DNA of 64,000 nucleotides from a phage, in NCBI GenBank assembly GCA_017864995.1, contig GCA_017864995.1_4097.1, one strand, 5' to 3'. Of this stretch, positions 1 to 26,152 are shown piece after piece. Position numbers and translations under genes: made by a program. Each line of letters opens with the position of its first letter. The stretch's first letter is position 1. Below the pieces are notes generated by a model. That model did not search any database. It was given only the letters and a program-made list of their open reading frames with translations, and was not told where the DNA came from.

Positions 1-35
1 AAAAAAAAAGCCAGTATCAAGTACTGGCATTCAAT

Positions 36-1202
36 TTATTGTAAAAAGGACATATCTACTTCTGTATAATTAAGAACGTTCTGTCCAGAAATACCACCCA
101 TTACTACTATTGCAAGGCCACAATAATATAATTTTCCAGTATCCGTAAGTATAAGTGATCCAGATGAACTGCGTACCAAATCACACGAACTATTAAAAGA
201 AGTATAAGAAGGAGTATAGGAGTACTGATTATTATTATTACCAACACCTAATTGCCCAAACCCATTCGATCCAGAAGCATATAGAACTTCATCTGCTTTG
301 ACAATATGTGATGCCATGTTACCAACACAAGTATATAGAGTATAAACTCCTGAACTCAATAATGTCGGAGTTTTATATTGTATATCTGTAGATGTAGAAG
401 TACCACCTGTACCAAATTCGTTCCCATATTGTGCACCGAACTGTTTACCACAAGCGTACAAATTATTATCCGATTTGATAAAAAATGTACTCTGATAACT
501 TACATTAAAATCTATAACATCCGAAGAAATCATCGTCACCCCAGTAATAGAAGTTTGATTACCCGTGCCCAACTGGTAGTAATAGTTAAAACCACAACCC
601 CATAAAGTATTATCTTCTCGCAAATAAATGTTACCAACTGCCTTTTTAACCGAAGTTATAGTATCTACTCTTTTGAATGTGTTAAAAGAATTAATGTTTG
701 TGCCATCACCAAATGATGATATGTTCGATATATTGTTAGTTCCACAACAATACAATGTACCATCGTTTGTTATCAAATTCACCTTCATATCATAAAAACT
801 ACTCATGTATTTTATATCAGAAACATTAATACCACTTGATGTTATCCACGTAGTACAGTCCGTCCACAAAGTTTTTCTATCAGTTACACCAGTGAATGCC
901 TTCGTGTTACCAGTGATAAAAACTTTTCCAGTACCTTTCTCTTCATACAATTGACAATCACTACTGTTATCTTCCAATAGAACTCGTTTAACATTCTCCG
1001 CACAAAGAATAAATTTACTCGATGTTACACCTGTACCAGTACCCCAATTCGCCGCAGAAGATGCATACAACTTATCAGTATAAGTATCATGAAGATACAT
1101 AGAATCACTGGAATATATTTTAAAACGCCCAGAGTTGGTAGGTGCTTCATTCCCATAATCAAACATTCTAACAAAAGGTAACATATTTCCTCCTTTATTC
1201 AT
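36..1202 (-). CDS. RCC1-like repeat (beta-propeller) protein
   Basis: 388-aa ORF, only convincing minus-strand gene; repeated LYACG/LWGCG/LYCCG/LYYCG and G-x-G-QLG-x-G units; alternative start M7 at 1184 preceded by AAAGGAGG. Confidence 0.6.
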   Translation of the reverse strand: MNKGGNMLPFVRMFDYGNEAPTNSGRFKIYSSDSMYLHDTYTDKLYASSAANWGTGTGVTSSKFILCAENVKRVLLEDNSSDCQLYEEKGTGKVFITGNTKAFTGVTDRKTLWTDCTTWITSSGINVSDIKYMSSFYDMKVNLITNDGTLYCCGTNNISNISSFGDGTNINSFNTFKRVDTITSVKKAVGNIYLREDNTLWGCGFNYYYQLGTGNQTSITGVTMISSDVIDFNVSYQSTFFIKSDNNLYACGKQFGAQYGNEFGTGGTSTSTDIQYKTPTLLSSGVYTLYTCVGNMASHIVKADEVLYASGSNGFGQLGVGNNNNQYSYTPSYTSFNSSCDLVRSSSGSLILTDTGKLYYCGLAIVVMGGISGQNVLNYTEVDMSFLQ

Positions 1203-1232
1203 TATATCATATTTACCCCATAAACAAAACCC

Positions 1233-1261
1233 TTGACATCCTTTCAGTACTGGTGTACTAT
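1233..1261 (+). promoter_or_regulatory. sigma70-like promoter for Fam1 array
   Basis: TTGACA-17nt-TACTAT, then AAGGAG RBS and ATG at 1287. Confidence 0.45.
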
Positions 1262-1286
1262 AGAAGGAATATAAGGAGAACTGTAC

Positions 1287-1514
1287 ATGACAACTACACT
1301 TAAGTACTACATTAATACTCTAAATGAACTAGAGTACGCGAAGTTTCTCGCGGATAGTTCGTGGCTAATTGAGCTAAAAACACATAACAGTACTGGATGT
1401 AACCTTATGCTGAACAATGCACTTGATACCCTTGTAGTGAGTATTTTACACAGCAACATCTGCGGGGATAGAAACAAACAATTATCAAAAATCTTAGTAC
1501 TGGTAGCTCTATGA
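1287..1514 (+). CDS. Fam1 small protein
   Basis: 75 aa; LKYYINTL N-term; first gene of tandem array. Confidence 0.5.
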   Translation: MTTTLKYYINTLNELEYAKFLADSSWLIELKTHNSTGCNLMLNNALDTLVVSILHSNICGDRNKQLSKILVLVAL

Positions 1515-1723
1515 ACACTATGAACATTGAACAGTACTACATTGATGCACTACCAACAAAAGGTCTACGAGAAAGCCTACTGTATACACAAAATAATTAT
1601 ATAAACCTCAAACATTGTCCTAAACTCTTGAACTCGTACAGGAATAATAAAATAAGAAATGCTGTACAAGGGGTAGAAAGTATGCAATACTATTACATCC
1701 TAACCCTTTTAATCGAACACTAA
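1511..1723 (+). CDS. Fam1 small protein
   Basis: MNTMNIEQYYIDAL; ATGA stop/start overlap with upstream gene. Confidence 0.55.
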   Translation: MNTMNIEQYYIDALPTKGLRESLLYTQNNYINLKHCPKLLNSYRNNKIRNAVQGVESMQYYYILTLLIEH

Positions 1724-1724
1724 T

Positions 1725-1910
1725 ATGTATAAAGAATTCTACTGTAGTAAGCTGCACAAACAATACAGAGATTCATTTCCCAATGAACCTATGGATATGA
1801 ATAGTCCCTTTTATAAATTTGACTTCAGACTGGAGACACGTTATGCAATAGAACATCAATTTCCTGAAACTAAGTACTTATCTATCATGAACCTCATCTT
1901 TAAGTTCTAA
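1725..1910 (+). CDS. Fam1 small protein
   Basis: MYKEFYCSKL; C-term MNLIFKF. Confidence 0.55.
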   Translation: MYKEFYCSKLHKQYRDSFPNEPMDMNSPFYKFDFRLETRYAIEHQFPETKYLSIMNLIFKF

Positions 1911-1921
1911 AAGAGTACTAT

Positions 1922-2134
1922 ATGAAAACAATGAACATACACCAGTACTACTTAGATATTCTCCCTAAAGATGTACAGTTCATCCTTAAACAAGAATACA
2001 GTACTTTAAAAAACCTTAAAAGAACCGCACCGAATGTATTAATCCTGCACCAAGAAAATGTAGTTGATAATATTCTACAAGGTGTACCAGGGACCGAGTA
2101 CTTTAACATAATCAGGCTAATTACATTACCATGA
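1922..2134 (+). CDS. Fam1 small protein
   Basis: MKTMNIHQYYLDIL; paralog of 1511. Confidence 0.55.
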   Translation: MKTMNIHQYYLDILPKDVQFILKQEYSTLKNLKRTAPNVLILHQENVVDNILQGVPGTEYFNIIRLITLP

Positions 2135-2316
2135 ATCATATATTATACTATTACCAAAATCTATCCGACAGGGACAAGTACACCCACAACTCCAATGTAT
2201 GGTACTACAAACGCGGTAGTATAAGAGACAAACAACATTACTTCTGTATTGCTATAAAAGAAGCACTAACAACTAAGTACACGTACAGAGCAGTACTGAA
2301 ACTTATTGATATGTAA
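2131..2316 (+). CDS. Fam1 small protein
   Basis: MNHILYYYQNL; C-term AVLKLIDM. Confidence 0.5.
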   Translation: MNHILYYYQNLSDRDKYTHNSNVWYYKRGSIRDKQHYFCIAIKEALTTKYTYRAVLKLIDM

Positions 2317-2326
2317 AGAGAATACT

Positions 2327-2509
2327 ATGAGCATTGAATTGTACTTAAGTAAATTACAGCCTGGCGATAGATTCATCTACAATAAGTTCGAATTCAACTA
2401 CAAGAACGGGAGCAACAAATATCGTCGAGGATACCTATATACAAGCACAAGAGATGCACAAAACGAAAAGTACACATACAGAGAAGTACTTAAACTAATC
2501 TCTATTTGA
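2327..2509 (+). CDS. Fam1 small protein
   Basis: start moved to internal Met MSIELYLSKL (track 2306); C-term EVLKLISI. Confidence 0.5.
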   Translation: MSIELYLSKLQPGDRFIYNKFEFNYKNGSNKYRRGYLYTSTRDAQNEKYTYREVLKLISI

Positions 2510-2517
2510 GGTAATAT

Positions 2518-2703
2518 ATGAATACATTTGAGTACTATACAAATAAACTATCTATGCCTGAAAGATCTCACCTCTATGTGTGGAGAAATGCGTATAAAAG
2601 CGGCAATAAACGTATACAAAGAAATTCCCTTACAGTGTGTACAAATTTAATTAAAGCAGAGTACCGCACATATATTGAAGTACTCAAACTGATAGCAATC
2701 TAA
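2518..2703 (+). CDS. Fam1 small protein
   Basis: MNTFEYYTNKL; C-term EVLKLIAI. Confidence 0.55.
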   Translation: MNTFEYYTNKLSMPERSHLYVWRNAYKSGNKRIQRNSLTVCTNLIKAEYRTYIEVLKLIAI

Positions 2704-2711
2704 GGTACTCT

Positions 2712-2891
2712 ATGCAAGAATTCTATATCTATAACCTCCAGCACAAAGATAGATACAACTATAATAAATTCCAAAGGTACTACACAGTCGGGAACAAAAG
2801 AGATAAAAAACGTTATCTACTCTCGTGTACAGTAGAAGCACAAAACGAAAAGTACACGTACAGAGAAGTACTTAAACTAATCTCAATCTAA
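2712..2891 (+). CDS. Fam1 small protein (59 aa, below track cutoff)
   Basis: hand-translated MQEFYIYNL...EVLKLISI; fills gap in array. Confidence 0.5.
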   Translation: MQEFYIYNLQHKDRYNYNKFQRYYTVGNKRDKKRYLLSCTVEAQNEKYTYREVLKLISI

Positions 2892-2898
2892 GGTAGAC

Positions 2899-3087
2899 AT
2901 GAACACTTTTGAGTACTACTTCAATAAACTAAACCACATAGAACAAAGTATGCACAACTCATTTATTCAGCACCATCAATCATCTGCACATGGAATTAAA
3001 AATATATCGATTGAGATTATCACTACCCGTGTACTGTCATCTGAACGTTATATGTATATTGATGTACTGAAACTCATCTCTATGTAA
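2899..3087 (+). CDS. Fam1 small protein
   Basis: MNTFEYYFNKL; C-term DVLKLISM. Confidence 0.55.
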   Translation: MNTFEYYFNKLNHIEQSMHNSFIQHHQSSAHGIKNISIEIITTRVLSSERYMYIDVLKLISM

Positions 3088-3095
3088 GGAATAAT

Positions 3096-3275
3096 ATGCA
3101 AGAATACTATATAGAACACATAAGCATTAAAGACCGTTTCATGTACGACACCTTCGTGAAGTACTACAACCTGGCAACTAACAGTACTAAAAATATTAAT
3201 CTCAATAGCTGCATTCATCACGCACTAACAAAAGATAATCCCTTCAGGGAAATCCTCGCACTAGCATCTGTATAA
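3096..3275 (+). CDS. Fam1 small protein (59 aa, below track cutoff)
   Basis: hand-translated MQEYYIEHISIKD...; fills gap in array. Confidence 0.5.
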   Translation: MQEYYIEHISIKDRFMYDTFVKYYNLATNSTKNINLNSCIHHALTKDNPFREILALASV

Positions 3276-3286
3276 AGGAAAACCAA

Positions 3287-3946
3287 ATGAAACTTAATGC
3301 ACACAGCAAACAATACCTTAAGCACTTTAAGTACCTCAACAGTATTCAAGCAGAATCTTTTACACCAGTATATACTTACGACCCGAATGTACTAAAGAAA
3401 CGAAATAAAAAGAAAAAATCCAGAAATGTTCTCGTATCTAAGAACCTCAAATCGTACTTGAAGAAAAATAATATAGCTCTTGCTTTTATTAATATCTATA
3501 ATACTGATTTAAAAGTATTGAGTACTAATACCAGCACAAAAGCACTAAAGAATGCATCTATCTATATACACATGGATAATATCCCGTGCACTATAATTCT
3601 ATCTTTCGGGAATGTATACTTCTTCGGGAATTGTAATAGCACCCATGATATCAGTACTGCACAATTCCAAATCGGAGATATGTACTGCATGGGTTCAGAA
3701 AAAATACACGATAACATGCACTTCTTCCAAAAGCAACGTACTAACGAAACTGATACAGTACTGCAATTCCTCAAAGAACTAGAACACAAAGAATTATCCG
3801 ACGAAGAAGAATTCATGTACAGTACTGTAATCGATAATCCAGGACTCTATAAAAACGCGTACAAACTAACAAAACATGTACAGGAACTTATCAGTACTGA
3901 TAAGAAATTTCATCACCTCATTACGTATATTACAAACTATGTATAA
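3287..3946 (+). CDS. hypothetical protein (219 aa) embedded in Fam1 array
   Basis: long ORF, RBS AAAGGA upstream; Lys-rich N-terminal region; no family motif. Confidence 0.5.
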   Translation: MKLNAHSKQYLKHFKYLNSIQAESFTPVYTYDPNVLKKRNKKKKSRNVLVSKNLKSYLKKNNIALAFINIYNTDLKVLSTNTSTKALKNASIYIHMDNIPCTIILSFGNVYFFGNCNSTHDISTAQFQIGDMYCMGSEKIHDNMHFFQKQRTNETDTVLQFLKELEHKELSDEEEFMYSTVIDNPGLYKNAYKLTKHVQELISTDKKFHHLITYITNYV

Positions 3947-4124
3947 AGAATACTACATAGATAAACTCCCAATGCATCTACAATACCTTGTACCAACAGA
4001 ACCATTGGGTATAGAAAAAGACTACGAAAAAGACTACTTCGTTAAGTGCACTAAATCCTCGATAGATATTGACGACTATAATCGAGTACTGTATCACATC
4101 ATTTTACTAATATATAAGTACTAA
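3939..4124 (+). CDS. Fam1 small protein
   Basis: start at internal Met MYKEYYIDKLPMHL (track 3876); ATGTATAA overlap with upstream stop. Confidence 0.55.
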   Translation: MYKEYYIDKLPMHLQYLVPTEPLGIEKDYEKDYFVKCTKSSIDIDDYNRVLYHIILLIYKY

Positions 4125-4125
4125 T

Positions 4126-4305
4126 ATGCACAAACATAAAGAATTCTACTTGTCGTACCTTAATTCCGATATAGTAACATCCAATACCTTCAGTACTAAA
4201 ATTATCTATAATGAATTAATGAAAGAATGTATTAAAGGTGCTATTAACCCTAAAGATACGTATGACTTGTACTATGCAGTACTAACCCTTGTTTTCACGA
4301 AATAA
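4126..4305 (+). CDS. Fam1 small protein (59 aa, below track cutoff)
   Basis: hand-translated MHKHKEFYLSYL... Confidence 0.5.
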   Translation: MHKHKEFYLSYLNSDIVTSNTFSTKIIYNELMKECIKGAINPKDTYDLYYAVLTLVFTK

Positions 4306-4313
4306 CACATAAT

Positions 4314-4502
4314 ATGAATAACCACAAAGAATACTACATAGAGAAACTCCCAATGTATCTCCAGAGCCAGATACCAAACGTTGCATTGGGCATAAAAGAT
4401 GACGCAAAAACAATGTTCCAAGAATGTACTAAGTACACCCTAATGTACGAGGATAGAACATATAAACTGTATTACATCCTCGCCCTAATATTCAAGTACT
4501 AA
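4314..4502 (+). CDS. Fam1 small protein
   Basis: MNNHKEYYIEKLPMYL; C-term YYILALIFKY. Confidence 0.55.
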   Translation: MNNHKEYYIEKLPMYLQSQIPNVALGIKDDAKTMFQECTKYTLMYEDRTYKLYYILALIFKY

Positions 4503-4512
4503 AGAGAACAAT

Positions 4513-4701
4513 ATGAATAACCACAAAGAATACTACACACAATTTCTCCCCAGTATTTTTGAACACTACGCCAGATATAAAGTCCCCCTGGATAACGATT
4601 TGGCAGTACTGGGATTCAATAATTGCATAGAACGCAGTATAGAAAATAGTAGTAGCTATGACCAATTATATAACACTATCCTACTTATATTCAGGTACTA
4701 A
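4513..4701 (+). CDS. Fam1 small protein
   Basis: MNNHKEYYTQFL; C-term ILLIFRY. Confidence 0.55.
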   Translation: MNNHKEYYTQFLPSIFEHYARYKVPLDNDLAVLGFNNCIERSIENSSSYDQLYNTILLIFRY

Positions 4702-4702
4702 T

Positions 4703-4891
4703 ATGCATAAAGAATACTACACAAAATATTTCCCAATGTACCTCAGTACTAATCTATTAGATAAACCTCGCGGTATCAATGCTCAAAACGATAAAGTGTA
4801 CTTTACTATGTGCACTAAAGCATGTATACTAGATTTTGATAGCTATCATCGAGTACTGTATCATACACTGTACCTAGCTTTCGTGTACTAA
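4703..4891 (+). CDS. Fam1 small protein
   Basis: start at internal Met MHKEYYTKYFPMYL (track 4658). Confidence 0.55.
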   Translation: MHKEYYTKYFPMYLSTNLLDKPRGINAQNDKVYFTMCTKACILDFDSYHRVLYHTLYLAFVY

Positions 4892-4901
4892 AGAGGCCAA
4901 T

Positions 4902-5108
4902 ATGAACGAACAGAAAGAATTTTACACCAAACACCTCAGTGCATCAGAACAAATGTTTCTAAGGAGTGTATCACCTTTACGTTTAGATACACCTCACGCC
5001 AGAGATTGCTTTAATAATTGTATACGTATTACTCTAGAAGCTTTAGAAAACAATAACAAAAATATTCAGTACTCAGGCGTAATGGGACTAATATTCTTCT
5101 ATGAATAA
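4902..5108 (+). CDS. Fam1 small protein
   Basis: MNEQKEFYTKHLSASEQMFL. Confidence 0.55.
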   Translation: MNEQKEFYTKHLSASEQMFLRSVSPLRLDTPHARDCFNNCIRITLEALENNNKNIQYSGVMGLIFFYE

Positions 5109-5289
5109 CAAAGAATTCTACTTAAACCATCTGGAACTAAACTCCCAAATGCTTATACCACTAAACCCAATAGATATCAAGGATAAGAAAAATACCAAAC
5201 AATTCCACTATCACACACTATGTGCTATCAACCCAGATTATAATACATATAAACTGTACTACATTCTCGCCCTAATATATAGGTACTAA
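5101..5289 (+). CDS. Fam1 small protein
   Basis: MNNKEFYLNHL; C-term ALIYRY. Confidence 0.55.
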   Translation: MNNKEFYLNHLELNSQMLIPLNPIDIKDKKNTKQFHYHTLCAINPDYNTYKLYYILALIYRY

Positions 5290-5290
5290 C

Positions 5291-5476
5291 ATGCATAGAG
5301 AATACTACACACAATTTGTTAAAGGGAACTACAAACACGCCGTCCCCGTAAACCCCTTAAATTCTAATGACCCAAGTACTATATTCTTGTTCCATGACGC
5401 AATACGTACAGTACTCAATACTAAAGATGAACAGGTGCAGTACGTATTCTTACTATTACTTATATACAGACACTAA
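5291..5476 (+). CDS. Fam1 small protein
   Basis: MHREYYTQFV; C-term LLLIYRH. Confidence 0.55.
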   Translation: MHREYYTQFVKGNYKHAVPVNPLNSNDPSTIFLFHDAIRTVLNTKDEQVQYVFLLLLIYRH

Positions 5477-5481
5477 CTAAT

Positions 5482-5691
5482 ATGAATAAAGAACATAAAG
5501 AATTCTACTCCAAACACCTCAGCCCCACAGAACAAATGTTTCTAAGGACTACAGCACCTTTAAGTACTGATACATATTTCGGCAGAGTATGCTACAATAA
5601 TTGTATTCAAATGACTTTAAACGCAAACGACAATAATAACAGTACTAATATGTACTCCGGCATCATAGGTATACTATTTCTATATGAATAA
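5482..5691 (+). CDS. Fam1 small protein
   Basis: MNKEHKEFYSKHLSPTEQMFL; close paralog of 4902. Confidence 0.55.
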   Translation: MNKEHKEFYSKHLSPTEQMFLRTTAPLSTDTYFGRVCYNNCIQMTLNANDNNNSTNMYSGIIGILFLYE

Positions 5692-5866
5692 AGAACATAA
5701 AGACTTCTACATAAGAAAACTAACATTCGTCCCCGTAAAAATATATAAAGAATGCGACCCAAGATTATACCTATGGCACTTCAATGAGTGCATAAAAGAT
5801 TCTATATACCCTAAGAACTATAAAGAACATTTGTTCTCAGTACTAACACTAGTACTATCATATTAA
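5684..5866 (+). CDS. Fam1 small protein
   Basis: MNKEHKDFYIRKL. Confidence 0.55.
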   Translation: MNKEHKDFYIRKLTFVPVKIYKECDPRLYLWHFNECIKDSIYPKNYKEHLFSVLTLVLSY

Positions 5867-5879
5867 TAGAGATAATACT

Positions 5880-6062
5880 ATGTATAAAGACTTCTATATA
5901 AGTAAACTCAAAGAGAATGAACAAGCATGGGTTAACAATTTAATCCCCCTGGCAATGACTCAATACGAATTTAATATGTGTACAAAGATTGTTTTAACTA
6001 CTAATGATATCTCTAATACGTACTACTTCCTATTAAGAGTACTATATGGTACTTTGAAATAA
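5880..6062 (+). CDS. Fam1 small protein
   Basis: MYKDFYISKLKENEQAWV. Confidence 0.55.
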   Translation: MYKDFYISKLKENEQAWVNNLIPLAMTQYEFNMCTKIVLTTNDISNTYYFLLRVLYGTLK

Positions 6063-6073
6063 TAAGGTATACT

Positions 6074-6280
6074 ATGCAGAACATAAAAAACTATAAAGAG
6101 TACTATATAAGTAAACTACCACCGACTGACCAAGCATGGATTAGATCTATAATAGTACTGGCATTTAATAGATATGCATTTAACAGATGTACCGAGATTG
6201 CTATAGACCCTTATAATATTAAAGAGAATGTACAGCATAATCAGTACTACTATATGTTAATGCTTATATATAGGAAGTAA
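6074..6280 (+). CDS. Fam1 small protein
   Basis: MQNIKNYKEYYISKLPPTDQAWI; last member. Confidence 0.55.
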   Translation: MQNIKNYKEYYISKLPPTDQAWIRSIIVLAFNRYAFNRCTEIAIDPYNIKENVQHNQYYYMLMLIYRK

Positions 6281-6289
6281 TTCAACATA

Positions 6290-8230
6290 TAGACAGGGGA
6301 AGCTCCGCAGGGAAAGCATTGGACAGGCTTTAACATATGTTATATATGTTAAAATTCAGCCTGGACAAATGCGATCACTAGGATTCTCCCCAGGCTAAAC
6401 CCCGTAATCATATGTAGTCATAAGTAATCATATATAAACATTTATATGAGCACCGTAGAATCACAGAATGATTATATATGATTCAGTACTGATTATTATA
6501 GACAAGATTACTCAAGAATGCTAGGGAAGGATTCAGTACTGCCCCAAAAGTATTCAGTACTGAAGGTGTCGATATGCCACTAAGTAGGCAGAGGAAGTCT
6601 GCCGTACTTTGTAGTTTCCAAGCTCCTTTTCCAATTTGCAAATTACATCAAATGTAATCAAAAGTAATCACGCAATGATTAGTACTGAATTATTACTTTC
6701 ACCTTAATTACAATTACCCTTTTACCCTTCGGGGTAAAATTCAATTACCCCTTGAGGCTCCAGCAAAAAGTTGGTTAGTACTCCATCCTAAATCTCGATC
6801 CTAAAAATTTTGGAGTACCTATGAAATAAAAGTTGGATCTTCGAAAGTTGAAATTTACGTTGGGACGTTTATGATTTGTGGGATATAATGATGTTTGTAG
6901 TCGGGTAGTTCTCAAGAATATCAGTACTGAAAGATGAAAGAAAGTTATTGACTTTATGATTCAGTACTGTATAATGTTCTACATAGGGTGATGAGTTGCT
7001 GCGAACAATTCATTTACTCTACCTCCTGTCGTGAGACAGTACAGAAAAGATAGTTCCTCCTGTGGTGGTGGTACATCTTTTTGAACCTCATATGAAAATC
7101 GTAATAACAGTACTGATATTAACAGAATGGTGTCAGTACTGATTTTAATCTAAAGCATTATGCCACCAGCTTGTGCTGGTGGATTCCCTCTAACAGTATT
7201 CAGTACTACATGATGGTCTTCATCCTCCTAGGGTAACATAGTGAGGGCTATGATGGCAGTACTGAATACTCCCTTTCAAAAGATAGATCTATGGTATAGT
7301 ACTGACGGATTTTGGGTGTAGTTACCCTGGATGGATTTTGGACGTAGATATGTCTAGCCCTCCAGAAGTCTGGAAGTAAAGATGGCTATCCATCTAGACG
7401 GCTAAACGGCTAGATTTCTGGATGGCTGGATGGCTAGACGTTTGGACGGCTAAACGGCTAGATGGTTACACGTCTGGAAGTATAGACGGCTAAATCAAAA
7501 TTTTATTTTGTTTTTTCCAATAGTTCCCCTACCGCGTGGGGATAGTTTCCCCGCAGTATCTGGTGTTAGATTTTTCTGAATCTGGAATCATTATCTTATA
7601 AACTGGGGGCAATGTCAACGACCTGGACGGATATTTTTAAAAATTTTTTCAGTACTGAATTTTGGGCGTAACTATGCACCCGGTGGGCTTGAGTCTTTCT
7701 CGACTTGATGGAACTATTATACAGTACTGAAAAAATAAAGCAATACCCTGGAAGCAAAAAAGTTTTAATTAATTTGCTTGCTATCCTGGGCCGGACTATG
7801 GTACTATATTTCAGTACTGAGAAAGTGCGTTTACCTGCTAGGGTGCGGGAGTGTATCCTTTTTTTATATCTTGAATTTTGGGCGTAATTCCGCACCCTCT
7901 GGGGTTTCCGCTTTCTCGCGTCTATGTAGTAATTATACGCTTTTTCAGGATCAAGTCAATACCTAAAAACAAAATAATTGAAAATAATTTAACGCGTTTA
8001 AACTGCCCGTAACGCCCTGGAATGATTGGAATGGTGCAAATGTATAGCTTAGGTGTACTAATGCGTTAGAATGCGTCTGAGGCCGTTTTACGGGGTATAG
8101 GGATGATTTAGTGGATTGATTCAGTACTGAATAATAGTACTACTATATAGAAAGATAGTTCCCCTGGATGGTTGCAGTACTGAATGATAGTTTCCCTATA
8201 TAGAAAGAAAACTATTTTAAAAGTATTTGT
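6290..8230. other. ~2 kb non-coding hub with dense palindromes and repeats
   Basis: no RBS-supported ORF; many CAGTACTG palindromes; hairpins incl. TTTTACCC-ttcg-GGGTAAAA at 6720-6739; track ORFs here rejected. Confidence 0.5.
7360..7500. repeat. iteron-like direct repeats (GGCTA core)
   Basis: about 8 copies of r-GA-y-GGCTA-r incl. ACGGCTAAACGGCTAGAT x2 and GTCTGGAAGTA-A/T-AGA-y-GGCTA x2. Confidence 0.5.
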
Positions 8231-19889: not shown

Positions 19890-20204
19890 AAAATAATTGA
19901 AAAAGGGATTGACTCCGGTCAGTCCCTTTGCTATTATATACGCATAGAAACAAATCAGCCCACCGGGTGCATAAATGTATCTATTGTTTGCTGGTGGCTA
20001 GTACTGAAAACTATTTTTAAAAAGTACTTGCATTGTACTTATAATCAAGTATAATGTTTTACATCAGGACGGGGAACGAAATAAGTAACCCCGTTAAGTA
20101 GTCCAGGAGTAAGACATACGAAAAACTCCCCTGATAAAATAGTTTGACAATAGAAAGTAAACGAGTATAATACTTACATCAACCACTGATAAGGAAACAT
20201 AAAA

Positions 20205-21714: not shown

Positions 21715-21969
21715 ATGATTAAGGTTCAACTATATAAAGATAACATCTTACGGGTACACTATAAAGCACCGAAGAGAATCATCACAAAGGCCGTACAGCT
21801 TGCTAATGAGTTTATTAATGGTAACCTATTACCTAGGAAGTTAAGCAACGGGAAACTGCGTGTAATCGACGTGGACACTAACAACAGGATAGTAATCGAG
21901 AACACAGGAAAGATAAACCTTTATGAGCATCAACAATACAATAAGAAAATAAAACTAATATCACGTTGA
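21715..21969 (+). CDS. hypothetical basic protein (84 aa)
   Basis: MIKVQLYKDN; RBS AGGA. Confidence 0.5.
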   Translation: MIKVQLYKDNILRVHYKAPKRIITKAVQLANEFINGNLLPRKLSNGKLRVIDVDTNNRIVIENTGKINLYEHQQYNKKIKLISR

Positions 21970-22022
21970 CAGTACTCAATTGTTTTAGTACTATGTACAC
22001 ATACCAACACGGGAGAAACAAA

Positions 22023-22241
22023 ATGAAATTATCTAAAATCGAAAAGAAAACTATTGATGAAGCAGTTAAGCACGGTTATACCTTTCGTAATGATTCACAT
22101 TTTACCAATTTTCAACAAGGGTATCGTACTATTAAAAAACTAATTGACAAAGGTTTATTAGTTGAAGTCAATAACGGTAACGGTATCGAGTATCAACCAA
22201 CACAGGACGCATTTTATTTTAAGAAATATAATATTATCTAA
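22023..22241 (+). CDS. hypothetical protein (72 aa)
   Basis: start MKLSKIEKK; shares a duplicated ~60-nt promoter/leader with 22299 gene. Confidence 0.5.
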   Translation: MKLSKIEKKTIDEAVKHGYTFRNDSHFTNFQQGYRTIKKLIDKGLLVEVNNGNGIEYQPTQDAFYFKKYNII

Positions 22242-22298
22242 TTGACAGTACTCAAATGTTTTAGTACTATATGTACATACCAACACGGGGGAAACAAA

Positions 22299-22541
22299 AT
22301 GATTACTTTAGAAAAACGTATCAAAGAAACTACATCGCTGGTGGAACTGTTAACAGTACTCAAATGTAAAACAACACCATTCAGCACGCCGGACTTTATT
22401 AATATGGTTGATGTTAATGGTCGCTATCGTATCACGGTCGAACAAGGAGCGGCGAAAGTATTCAGTACTAAAAACACGAAGGAAGTGATCCACGCCGTTA
22501 ATGTTAAAAAAGTAGTTGCCATTGATAGTAAAGTACTGTAA
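22299..22541 (+). CDS. hypothetical protein (80 aa)
   Basis: start MITLEKRIKE; promoter/leader 22243-22301 near-identical to 21966-22025. Confidence 0.5.
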   Translation: MITLEKRIKETTSLVELLTVLKCKTTPFSTPDFINMVDVNGRYRITVEQGAAKVFSTKNTKEVIHAVNVKKVVAIDSKVL

Positions 22542-22572
22542 TATAGTTTCATTAACTCAAGGAGAACATGCA

Positions 22573-23157
22573 ATGCGTAATTATACAAAATTCATCCGTA
22601 CACTGTCAGAAATGGAAACCAACAAAGAGATCCTTTCAGCTTGTCGGTTAGCTGACCTGGAGATCATCGGTGCTGGTTCTTCCCGTATAGTTTTCGCTTT
22701 AAATGATCGGTTAGTGATTAAGGTCGCGAATTGTGATGCGGGTGTCGAACAAAATGAAACTGAATGTAAGGTATGGAATTTTTTAGACTATGACCGCCCT
22801 CAGTTGAAACAGTACTTTGCAAAGGTGCATATGCATTTATGCGATCCTGATAATATGTTTATCGTTATGGATCGGTTGAGTACTGCAAGCAAAGGCAGTG
22901 TGAAGCACGTAAACGCGTGCAATGAATTAAAGTACAATATTAAACGTAATGCAATCGAACGCCAGCACCGCTTTGCTGATGCACTACAACACGTTGATGA
23001 TACATTATCAACACTAACGATAAGAGATATCAGAAAACAGAATATCGGCCAGGATCGTAATGGACTTATTAAAGTACTTGATTACGGTTTAACCAGCAAT
23101 ATCTGGAATCAGTACTATAAAAAGCGTGATGTGGCAGCAAGTAAAGTAACACGATAA
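22573..23157 (+). CDS. putative protein-kinase-like protein
   Basis: IGAGSSRIVF (Gly-rich loop), VIKVA (Lys), IRDIRKQNIG (HRD-like loop), LDYG (DFG-like); RBS AAGGAGAA. Confidence 0.4.
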   Translation: MRNYTKFIRTLSEMETNKEILSACRLADLEIIGAGSSRIVFALNDRLVIKVANCDAGVEQNETECKVWNFLDYDRPQLKQYFAKVHMHLCDPDNMFIVMDRLSTASKGSVKHVNACNELKYNIKRNAIERQHRFADALQHVDDTLSTLTIRDIRKQNIGQDRNGLIKVLDYGLTSNIWNQYYKKRDVAASKVTR

Positions 23158-23378
23158 AAAAGATTAAAAAAGGGATTGACTTCGGTCAGTCCCTTTGCTA
23201 TTATATATTCATTGAGAGATAACTCACTGACCCATAGGGTGCGGAAGTGTATCTATTATATAAGTATTCAGTACTGAAAACTATTTTTAAAAAAGTACTT
23301 GCATTGTACTTAGAATCAAGTATAATGTTTTATATCGAGAGGGGGAAATGGTTCTCCCTGGCAATAAGGAATAAAATC

Positions 23379-25907: not shown

Positions 25908-26152
25908 CAAAAAAGAATAAAAAAAGGGATTGACTCCGGTCAGTCCCTTTGCTATTATATACGCATAGACAAAAACTAGCCCACAGGGTGCATAGGTGTA
26001 TCCAAAATATATAGTTAATAACGGTGAGTAACTATCTGCTGGTGGAGTGAAAACTATTAATAAAAAAGTATTGACAAAGTATATCAGTACTGCGATAATG
26101 TATCTCGTAGGGCGGCAATGGTGCGACGGCCCACAAAGTTAGGAGATTCACC

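Follow-up and report, generated by a model that had tools for sequence, protein, structure and literature searches.

A minimal protein-kinase-like gene in the terminal repeat region of an Asteriusvirus-type jumbo phage belongs to a large phage-borne family

Locus and coding sequence

The gene at positions 22573 to 23157 (+ strand) of a 64,000-nucleotide (nt) phage sequence (GenBank assembly GCA_017864995.1, contig GCA_017864995.1_4097.1; the whole stretch is called the window below) encodes a 194-amino-acid (aa) protein, which a sequence-only reading had described as a small kinase or pseudokinase lying among early-type genes and used for host takeover. Family-profile searches and a confident structure model bear out the minimal kinase: the protein has a predicted protein-kinase-like fold that ends shortly after the DFG-equivalent motif, and it falls in phrog_4301, a family of phage proteins recorded as of "unknown function". 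The coding sequence and its motifs are as follows.

22559-22564, + strand: Shine-Dalgarno sequence AAGGAG, 8 nt before the ATG at 22573 (read from the sequence)
22573-23157, + strand: kinase coding sequence, 194 aa plus stop (translation; 22.4 kDa, pI 9.1)
22666-22695, + strand: Gly-rich loop and beta2, IGAGSSRIVF, residues 32-41 (family form GxGSSRxV[FY])
22714-22764, + strand: beta3 Lys K50 in VIKVA (residues 48-52) and alphaC motif G57-x-x-Q60-N61-x-x-E64
23020-23049, + strand: catalytic loop IRDIRKQNIG, residues 150-159, with D152 as catalytic base equivalent and N157 as metal-binding Asn
23077-23088, + strand: LDYG, residues 169-172, DFG-equivalent metal-binding motif, with 22 residues after G172

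The ATG at 22573 is favored as the start over an upstream TTG at 22516 because of the AAGGAG spacing. All orthologues of the protein have MRNY as their N terminus.

Motifs and conservation

Every kinase motif picked out in the sequence-only reading was found, in canonical order, within the 194 aa. Conservation was computed column by column over 217 family domain instances, every tandem copy included, and the counts that follow refer to these domains. In the Gly-rich loop, G35 is kept in 191/198, S36 in 176/198, and R38 in 195/198. The beta3 Lys (K50) is present in 199/199 and E64, which lies in the acidic alphaC stretch QNETE, in 197/199; G57 (192/194) and the pair Q60 and N61 (193/197 each) accompany them, the Q-N pair being a signature specific to the phrog_4301 family. 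The hinge-like FIVMDRL occupies residues 96-102. D152 (191/197) and G159 (193/196) mark the catalytic loop, in which the His of HRD is absent (IRD in the query; the family consensus before the Asp is Gly, 93/194) and position 157 is N in 64, H in 64, S in 36, and Q in 23 domains, with N in this orthologue. D170 (194/194) and G172 (192/192) frame a Y or F at position 171 (171/194).

The family signature reads L-x-x-[LI]-G-x-G-S-S-R-x-V-[FY] ... V-[LI]-K-[IVL]-A-x-N-x-x-G-x-x-Q-N-x-x-E ... in its N-terminal half and continues after alphaC as [WFY]-[ILV]-[VI]-x-E ... D-[LIF]-x3-[HNSQ]-[WY]-G ... [LI]-D-[YF]-G-[LF]-[TS] ... [YH]-Y. Across an alignment of 54 single-domain members, reaching down to 20% identity, R38, K50, G57, Q60, E64, D170, and G172 are invariant.

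The kinase gene is under purifying selection (dN/dS of 0.04-0.07 versus two orthologues). Because K50, E64, D152, and D170 are essentially invariant and dN/dS is this low, the protein is very probably an active enzyme and not a pseudokinase.

Homology and predicted fold

The top Pfam match of the query was Pkinase (PF00069; HMMER, E=0.0033, residues 31-181 versus positions 6-152 of the 263-position model), and all 17 of its weak phmmer matches in the PDB were protein kinases. In the phmmer alignment with MKK4, the RDIKPSN...DFG of that kinase aligns with RDIRKQN...DYG of the query, placing D152, N157, and D170 on the HRD Asp, the Asn, and the DFG Asp. With a profile built from the 54 sequences, 572 PDB matches were obtained at E<=1, the best being MKK4 (E=1.9e-5), and all 60 of those listed were eukaryotic-type protein kinases (ePKs). 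When the 54 members were scanned singly against Pfam, Pkinase was matched by 12/54 (best E=5.7e-6), ABC1 by 5/54, and PK_Tyr_Ser-Thr by 4/54; PIP49_C and AceK_kinase, with one member each, were the only further kinase-type families among the 25 listed, and none of these 25 was an APH, choline kinase, RIO, or Kdo family. HopBF1, a minimal effector kinase of about 200 aa that mimics an HSP90 client, was not in the top 50-60 matches of any PDB search, no direct pairwise comparison having been made. We judge the homology of the 194-aa protein to the protein-kinase-like superfamily to be real but remote, and statistically supported.

It is very improbable that a small phage protein with no relation to kinases has come to resemble them in these motifs by chance. 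The query on its own scores only 17.3 bits against Pkinase, below the gathering threshold of 31.7, and NCBIfam had no family for it or for seven relatives. On the other side stand the 572 PDB matches of the family profile, and the motifs coincide exactly with the columns that do not vary among its members. The candidate was rejected on the profile E value of 1.9e-5 against PDB kinases and on the Pkinase matches in 12 members.

AlphaFold run with 13 close homologues gave a pLDDT of 54, and the 54-sequence alignment was used in its place; the resulting AlphaFold2 model had a pLDDT of 94.9 and a pTM of 0.90. Its N-terminal part consists of two helices (residues 4-12 and 17-26), three strands carrying the Gly-rich loop and K50, and a long alphaC (55-73) with E64. 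The C-terminal part comprises beta5 (96-100), helices 109-120 and 130-145 (alphaD/alphaE), the catalytic loop, two short strands (beta7-8), DYG, and a helix at 175-182; before alphaD, the strand order is beta1-3, alphaC, beta4-5. The predicted model is thus bilobal in the manner of protein kinases, with an ATP cleft between a beta-rich N-lobe that includes alphaC and a helical lobe. Fold searches superposed about 120 residues per match; Foldseek matches included OSR1, APH(2''), MEK1, Lpg2603, and PRPK (TMq 0.48), and solved ePKs reached a TMq of <=0.48. Neither a lack of kinase-fold matches nor a prediction without two lobes, which together would have told against a kinase, was encountered; profile and model were both kinase-like.

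Truncated C-lobe

The kinase ends 24 residues after D170 of DYG. Its core of about 165 residues closes right after the DFG equivalent, without alphaF, and there is no counterpart to Pkinase positions 153-263, which hold the activation segment, P+1 loop, APE, alphaF with its conserved Asp, and alphaG-alphaI. Lengths across the family center on 180-220 aa. In members with tandem copies, each module starts with the N-terminal helices and stops just past DYG...[YH]Y; by the model and by these boundaries, the two extra N-terminal helices are part of the kinase module. We regard the truncation as native and not an artefact because the family length is 180-220 aa, the tandem boundaries are the same, and a hairpin and a promoter follow the stop codon. 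The same three observations led us to reject a full-length kinase that had been split or frameshifted.

So short a C-lobe bears on a pseudokinase reading, in which the protein would be an ATP-binding or ATPase module that acts by binding, as a decoy, a scaffold, or a Bud32-like ATPase. The severe truncation, with loss of the alphaF that organizes the spines of ePKs, fits such a module, as do the H, S, or Q found at the catalytic-loop Asn position in three quarters of family domains and the place of Bud32/PRPK among the better Foldseek matches (TMq 0.48). Typical pseudokinases, though, have lost at least one of the phosphotransfer residues, and here the beta3 Lys, the catalytic Asp (D152), and the DFG Asp are all kept in the query and in 97-100% of the 217 domains; the canonical N157 is also retained in this orthologue, and H, S, and Q are still polar and able to coordinate metal or phosphate. 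We therefore consider a pseudokinase improbable, and that half of the earlier suggestion was not upheld, the ATP-binding and catalytic residues being essentially invariant. The family shows how far the kinase fold can shrink while its catalytic residues stay invariant.

The phrog_4301 family

The query matched the phrog_4301 profile with E=1.1e-41 (residues 2-188 versus positions 12-185 of 225), and all distant members tested fell in the same family (E=2e-13 to 1e-46). An exhaustive profile search returned 2,074 cluster representatives (50% identity clusters) at E<=1e-3, of which 247 were at E<=1e-10. Orthologues 90-100% identical occur in more than 30 Asteriusvirus records, homologues 36-40% identical in RaK2, K64-1, Munch, 7t3, SE_PL, Kaldavass, and XbC2, and every genomic context examined for the family was that of a phage.

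About 25 of 160 retrieved family proteins were multi-module, with two to four complete tandem copies whose catalytic residues are intact in each (metagenomic examples: P0021, P0023, P0027, P0030, and P0032). The gene of the triple-tandem protein P0021 (L011:1051-3132), found on contigs as long as 185 kb, follows an array of 80-100-aa genes and adjoins a NUDIX gene. A Metallophos (calcineurin-like phosphoesterase) gene (L011:3118-3972, - strand) is convergent with P0021 and overlaps its end, an arrangement seen in two places; its product may be a phosphatase counterpart.

When 18 longer members were scanned with Pfam for informative fusions, only four came up: a tape-measure domain, a single polyprotein of RNA-repair type, DUF5661, and a Mga helix-turn-helix match that was marginal and below threshold. 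The tape-measure case is P0136 (L005:2318-12064), a 3,248-aa phage protein with an N-terminal PhageMin_Tail domain and kinase modules at 665-830 and 855-1035, an arrangement which implies that the embedded modules would enter the cell with the DNA. P0111 (L007:6001-12393), a phage polyprotein of 2,130 aa, has a kinase module at 16-213 followed by GNAT, 2'-5' RNA ligase/2H-phosphoesterase, and CCA/poly(A)-polymerase domains, a possible link of the module to RNA repair or modification. In P0061 (residues 54-108), DUF5661 forms an N-terminal fusion with the kinase module, and a DUF5661 gene (L012:248-616) lies about 7 kb upstream of another family member on a T4-like contig.

The public names of family members are almost all "hypothetical protein". 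UniProt calls the PBECO4 and RP12 proteins "Protein kinase domain-containing protein", a few GenBank records name the gene "putative protein kinase", "PknA", or "PRP4", and the paper on phage Sharanji lists the orthologue WNN14351.1 as "another protein kinase, which function is unknown" (PMC11895373); the kinase-likeness of the gene is thus already on record in some database entries and one paper. The phrog_4301 record itself has no functional annotation, and the kinase assignment, active-site conservation, and tandem and tape-measure architectures are not in it. The libraries and papers that were searched appear to contain no description of a large phage-borne family that lies outside Pfam and NCBIfam, is natively truncated after DFG, and has an invariant active site, nor of its tandem and tape-measure architectures or of its separateness from, and coexistence with, the family of the T7 gp0.7 kinase (T7K). 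Nothing relevant was found in the literature on a "minimal phage kinase" family or on a link to HopBF1. Membership of a known defense system was rejected, PADLOC giving only weak, generic matches to the PD-T4-6 defense kinase (E=7e-4).

Genomic setting and transcription

The 6-kb surroundings of the kinase are 95-98% identical to Asteriusvirus genomes (PBECO4, 121Q, G17, Ecwhy_1, and Sharanji). Asteriusvirus comprises jumbo myoviruses of about 350 kb that infect Escherichia coli and are related to RaK2. Features of the surrounding region are listed here.

6583-27412, + strand: region homologous to the direct terminal repeat (DTR) of about 21 kb (blastn, vB_Ec-M-J 1-34271 versus the window)
20144, 20484, 20754, 21185, 23604, 24098, and 25624, + strand: seven perfect (12/12) sigma-70 promoters, TTGACA / 16-17 nt / TATAAT (promoter scan)
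22242-22270, + strand: sigma-70-type promoter, TTGACA / 17-nt spacer / TACTAT (promoter scan, 10/12 match)
22299-22541, + strand: open reading frame (ORF) of 80 aa upstream of the kinase, separated from it by a 31-nt gap
23169-23196, + strand: terminator-like hairpin of 28 nt with a 12-bp stem, AAAGGGATTGACTTCGGTCAGTCCCTTT, 3' of the kinase stop (with promoter boxes, the feature extends to 23204)

In vB_Ec-M-J, the orthologue is gene 42, inside the annotated DTR (1-21525). The DTR of fEgEco12 is 20,993 bp long, as verified by restriction digests (PMC13070987). The left physical genome end maps to about 6583 of the window and the inner edge of the DTR to about 27412, so that the kinase lies about 16 kb from the left end; records that hold both repeats carry the gene twice. 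Window positions 1-6582 correspond to the right end of the unique region, with RCC1-like "chromosome condensation regulator" genes, and for this reason we take the source assembly to have the repeat collapsed to one copy. In Sharanji, gp106-gp117 (L002:2818-16855) are twelve genes of about 380 aa, apparently paralogous, one of them annotated as RCC1-repeat; their Ser+Thr+Tyr content is 26%, versus 17% in neighbors.

The genes at 19-27 kb are all small and co-oriented. Seven 12/12 promoters within 6 kb, about one per small gene, make up an early-promoter array of unusual strength and regularity within the terminal repeat, and the description of these genes as early-type holds up well in view of this array and of the DTR-homologous position. 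Because of the DTR position and the sigma-70 promoters, the kinase is likely to be transcribed early by host RNA polymerase; the same inference was drawn for a related phage in the CBB paper (PMC5259590).

The promoter at 22242-22270 probably drives a two-gene unit that closes with the kinase, and the 80-aa ORF and the kinase apparently share one transcript. Between this promoter and the kinase start, the promoter scan found no second good promoter on the + strand (the site at 22516 matches 9/12). The 80-aa ORF matches Sharanji gp064 (243 nt). Munch has a weak homologue directly upstream of its kinase (37% identity over 43 aa, E=1.6e-5), and none was found upstream of the kinase in RaK2 or Kaldavass. 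An obligate two-gene system of ORF and kinase was rejected on this distribution.

Inside the hairpin at 23169 is the -35 box (TTGACT) of the promoter that comes next, whose -10 box (TATTAT) follows the hairpin. There is no T-run 3' of the hairpin, which makes its terminator function uncertain. The perfect 28-nt hairpin, with a pyrimidine (y) at one position (TTGACTyCGG), is followed by GCTATTATAT and occurs in three copies between early genes (19902-19939, 23169-23206, and 25923-25960, + strand); the three-copy hairpin/-35/-10 element looks like a combined terminator/promoter module. Near-identical copies of promoter plus leader were seen at 21966-22025 and 22242-22301 (+ strand), and also at about 23320 and about 24673, before different small ORFs. 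If translated, the duplicated leaders would read MTVLNCFSTMYTYQHGRNKM and MTVLKCFSTICTYQHGGNKM, and a second repeated leader MFYIERGKWF; both point to modular, recombining 5' regions.

Relation to the T7 gp0.7 kinase

The sequence-only reading had set the protein beside T7 gp0.7, a phage kinase that phosphorylates host proteins. The likeness may stand as one of role, and no homology was detected: BLASTP of the 194-aa kinase versus T7 gp0.7 gave no alignment, and hhalign versus T7 gp0.7 alone gave a probability of 2.5%. Against a profile of the T7K-like family, hhalign found a colinear match over 147 columns (E=7.8e-4, probability 25%). The query matches phrog_4301 only, whereas T7K and the Sharanji protein WNN14432.1 match phrog_2828, 15752, and 18305; the precomputed Pfam column holds PF27024.1 for the T7K-like group and "-" for the phrog_4301 family. 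In the T7K-like group, T-D is invariant and P nearly invariant, and the query has D-Y-G instead of DPV (DP-x). By structure, T7K-type proteins in BFVD were the best matches to the model among named kinases (TMq 0.52-0.55).

The phage genus has a separate, genuine T7K-like gene. WNN14432.1 (L006:4183-4857, - strand) is a 224-aa protein with a BLASTP match to T7 gp0.7 at E=4e-8, the motif ITDPLS, and a phrog_15752 assignment; it has no shut-off domain and ends 20 residues past its DFG-equivalent Asp. Its close homologue P0161 (98% identical) carries PF27024 in the precomputed column, and in the Sharanji record WNN14432.1 and the orthologue of the 194-aa kinase are about 46 kb apart. WNN14432.1, and not the 194-aa kinase, is presumably the "G17/Munch jumbophage T7K homologue" of PMC13645617. 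The phrog_4301 family and T7K are best seen as distinct families with a shared stripped-down kinase layout, and Asteriusvirus-type jumbo phages carry, as judged from these comparisons, two unrelated stripped-down kinases.

T7K was shown in 2026 to be a promiscuous Ser/Thr/Tyr kinase that disarms many bacterial defenses by mass phosphorylation (PMC13645617). Ser/Thr/Tyr depletion of early proteins has been reported for phages that have hyperpromiscuous T7K. Its inhibitory autophosphorylation site sits just after DPV (PMC13645617). In the phrog_4301 family, position 174 (DYG+2) is Thr or Ser in 125/191 domains, and it is a matter of speculation that this residue corresponds in place to that site.

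Proposed role and substrate

We think it somewhat probable that the protein is a minimal kinase which is active and not regulated, is made as soon as the DNA has entered, and phosphorylates host proteins with low selectivity. Its core, the N-lobe with the alphaD/alphaE, catalytic-loop, and DFG part of the C-lobe, would be about the smallest workable phosphotransferase, with ATP-Mg held by the GxGSSR loop, the K50-E64 pair, N157, and D170, and with D152 as catalytic base. The enzyme would be constitutively "open" and would not be switched by activation-loop phosphorylation, because the activation segment, the P+1 loop, and the alphaF-alphaI platform are absent; it would also have no canonical peptide-docking groove. 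Host RNA polymerase, acting at a sigma-70 promoter in the DTR, would lead to kinase being made within the first minutes of infection. Host (possibly phage) proteins would then be phosphorylated with low sequence selectivity, and host functions redirected or defenses disarmed, in a role functionally analogous to that of the T7 gp0.7 kinase domain, though played by a different family. That the 194-aa kinase is catalytically active, is made early, acts on proteins, and works against the host is what we infer, and host takeover and phosphorylation of host proteins are argued from the terminal-repeat and sigma-70 position and by analogy.

Several observations weigh against this account. Besides the sub-threshold Pkinase score of the single sequence, the family has no conserved Lys or Arg at D+2 to D+4, unlike Ser/Thr and Tyr ePKs, whose catalytic-loop Lys or Arg touches the gamma-phosphate. 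Proteins encoded in the DTR contain 17.1% Ser+Thr+Tyr versus 17.0-17.2% in adjacent blocks, a comparison of low power that includes no late genes. Some family members lie among structural genes, for example, a single-domain member near terminase and sheath genes in a T4-like myovirus. The phage genus also already has a T7K-like kinase, and a second enzyme for the same job is not obviously needed.

Part of this evidence speaks for an active kinase-fold enzyme with a non-protein substrate (a small molecule, a nucleotide or second messenger, a lipid, a sugar, or an RNA/DNA hydroxyl), and the target that the phage alters in the early phase of infection would be a metabolite, an immune signal, or a nucleic acid. 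We regard this reading as possible, though doubtful. Precedents are the aminoglycoside phosphotransferases, Kdo kinase, and the archaeal tRNA 2'-kinase ArkI. The whole peptide-binding part of the C-lobe is absent, the catalytic-loop Lys/Arg is not conserved, and the early proteins show no Ser/Thr/Tyr depletion. The invariant, family-specific residues R38, N54, G57, Q60, and N61 line the cleft region; phages that infect widely differing hosts all retain them, for which a single universal small substrate is a better explanation than a variety of host proteins. RNA-repair-type domains (GNAT, 2H-phosphoesterase, and CCA/poly(A)-polymerase) are joined to the module in one member, but this is a single case. 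By sequence, moreover, true protein kinases are the nearest match to the family (the recurrent Pfam matches being Pkinase, PK_Tyr_Ser-Thr, and ABC1, and all 60 listed PDB matches being ePKs), and T7K is a protein kinase with the same truncated layout (PMC13645617).

A narrower version of the non-protein reading, which we rate as unlikely, is that phrog_4301 is a second independent lineage of stripped-down phage kinases in which R38, N54, Q60, and N61 of the cleft recognize a universal non-protein target, such as an immune signaling nucleotide, a nucleic-acid end, or tRNA. If it were true, phosphorylation of that target would be a new anti-defense or host-takeover chemistry, and the polyproteins of two to four modules and the tape-measure copies would bring in several such activities at the very moment the DNA enters. 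Most likely, the 194-aa protein will prove to be a further protein kinase made early by a phage. If it is promiscuous like T7K, that would be a useful but incremental addition, whereas a non-protein substrate would be a new mechanism.

Phage kinases have lately become important, T7 gp0.7 having been shown in 2026 to disarm many defenses (PMC13645617). The phrog_4301 kinase family is much larger than T7K, is without a Pfam or NCBIfam match in the copies searched, and is without a characterized member. Its coexistence with a T7K-like kinase, its place in the terminal repeat, and the tandem and tape-measure forms make the kinase a direct candidate for a new enzyme of host takeover or anti-defense.

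Comparison with known kinases

The 194-aa kinase and T7K are both phage encoded in the leading, early part of the genome (early expression of the 194-aa kinase being the likely case argued above), and they have in common a kinase-like fold, a Gly-rich loop, a VxK Lys, a D-x4-N catalytic loop, and a DFG-equivalent Asp. They differ in their motifs, with DYG versus DPV/DPL, GxGSSR versus GxGxYS, and a QNxxE alphaC that has no T7K counterpart, and the 194-aa kinase is without the DNA-binding shut-off domain found in T7 gp0.7.

Hanks-type kinases (PF00069) have all the core motifs in the same order and register, and the N-lobe and catalytic-loop architecture is the same as in the model of the 194-aa kinase. 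Unlike them, the 194-aa kinase is without Pkinase positions 153-263, the HRD His, and the catalytic-loop Lys/Arg, and it has two extra N-terminal helices. Bud32/PRPK, RIO, ArkI/Ark1, and APH(2'') gave no Pfam-level match among the 25 families listed for the 54 members. These kinases are not phage early proteins; they have extra C-terminal helices of their own that build substrate sites, and their substrates are tRNA, rRNA precursors, and antibiotics.

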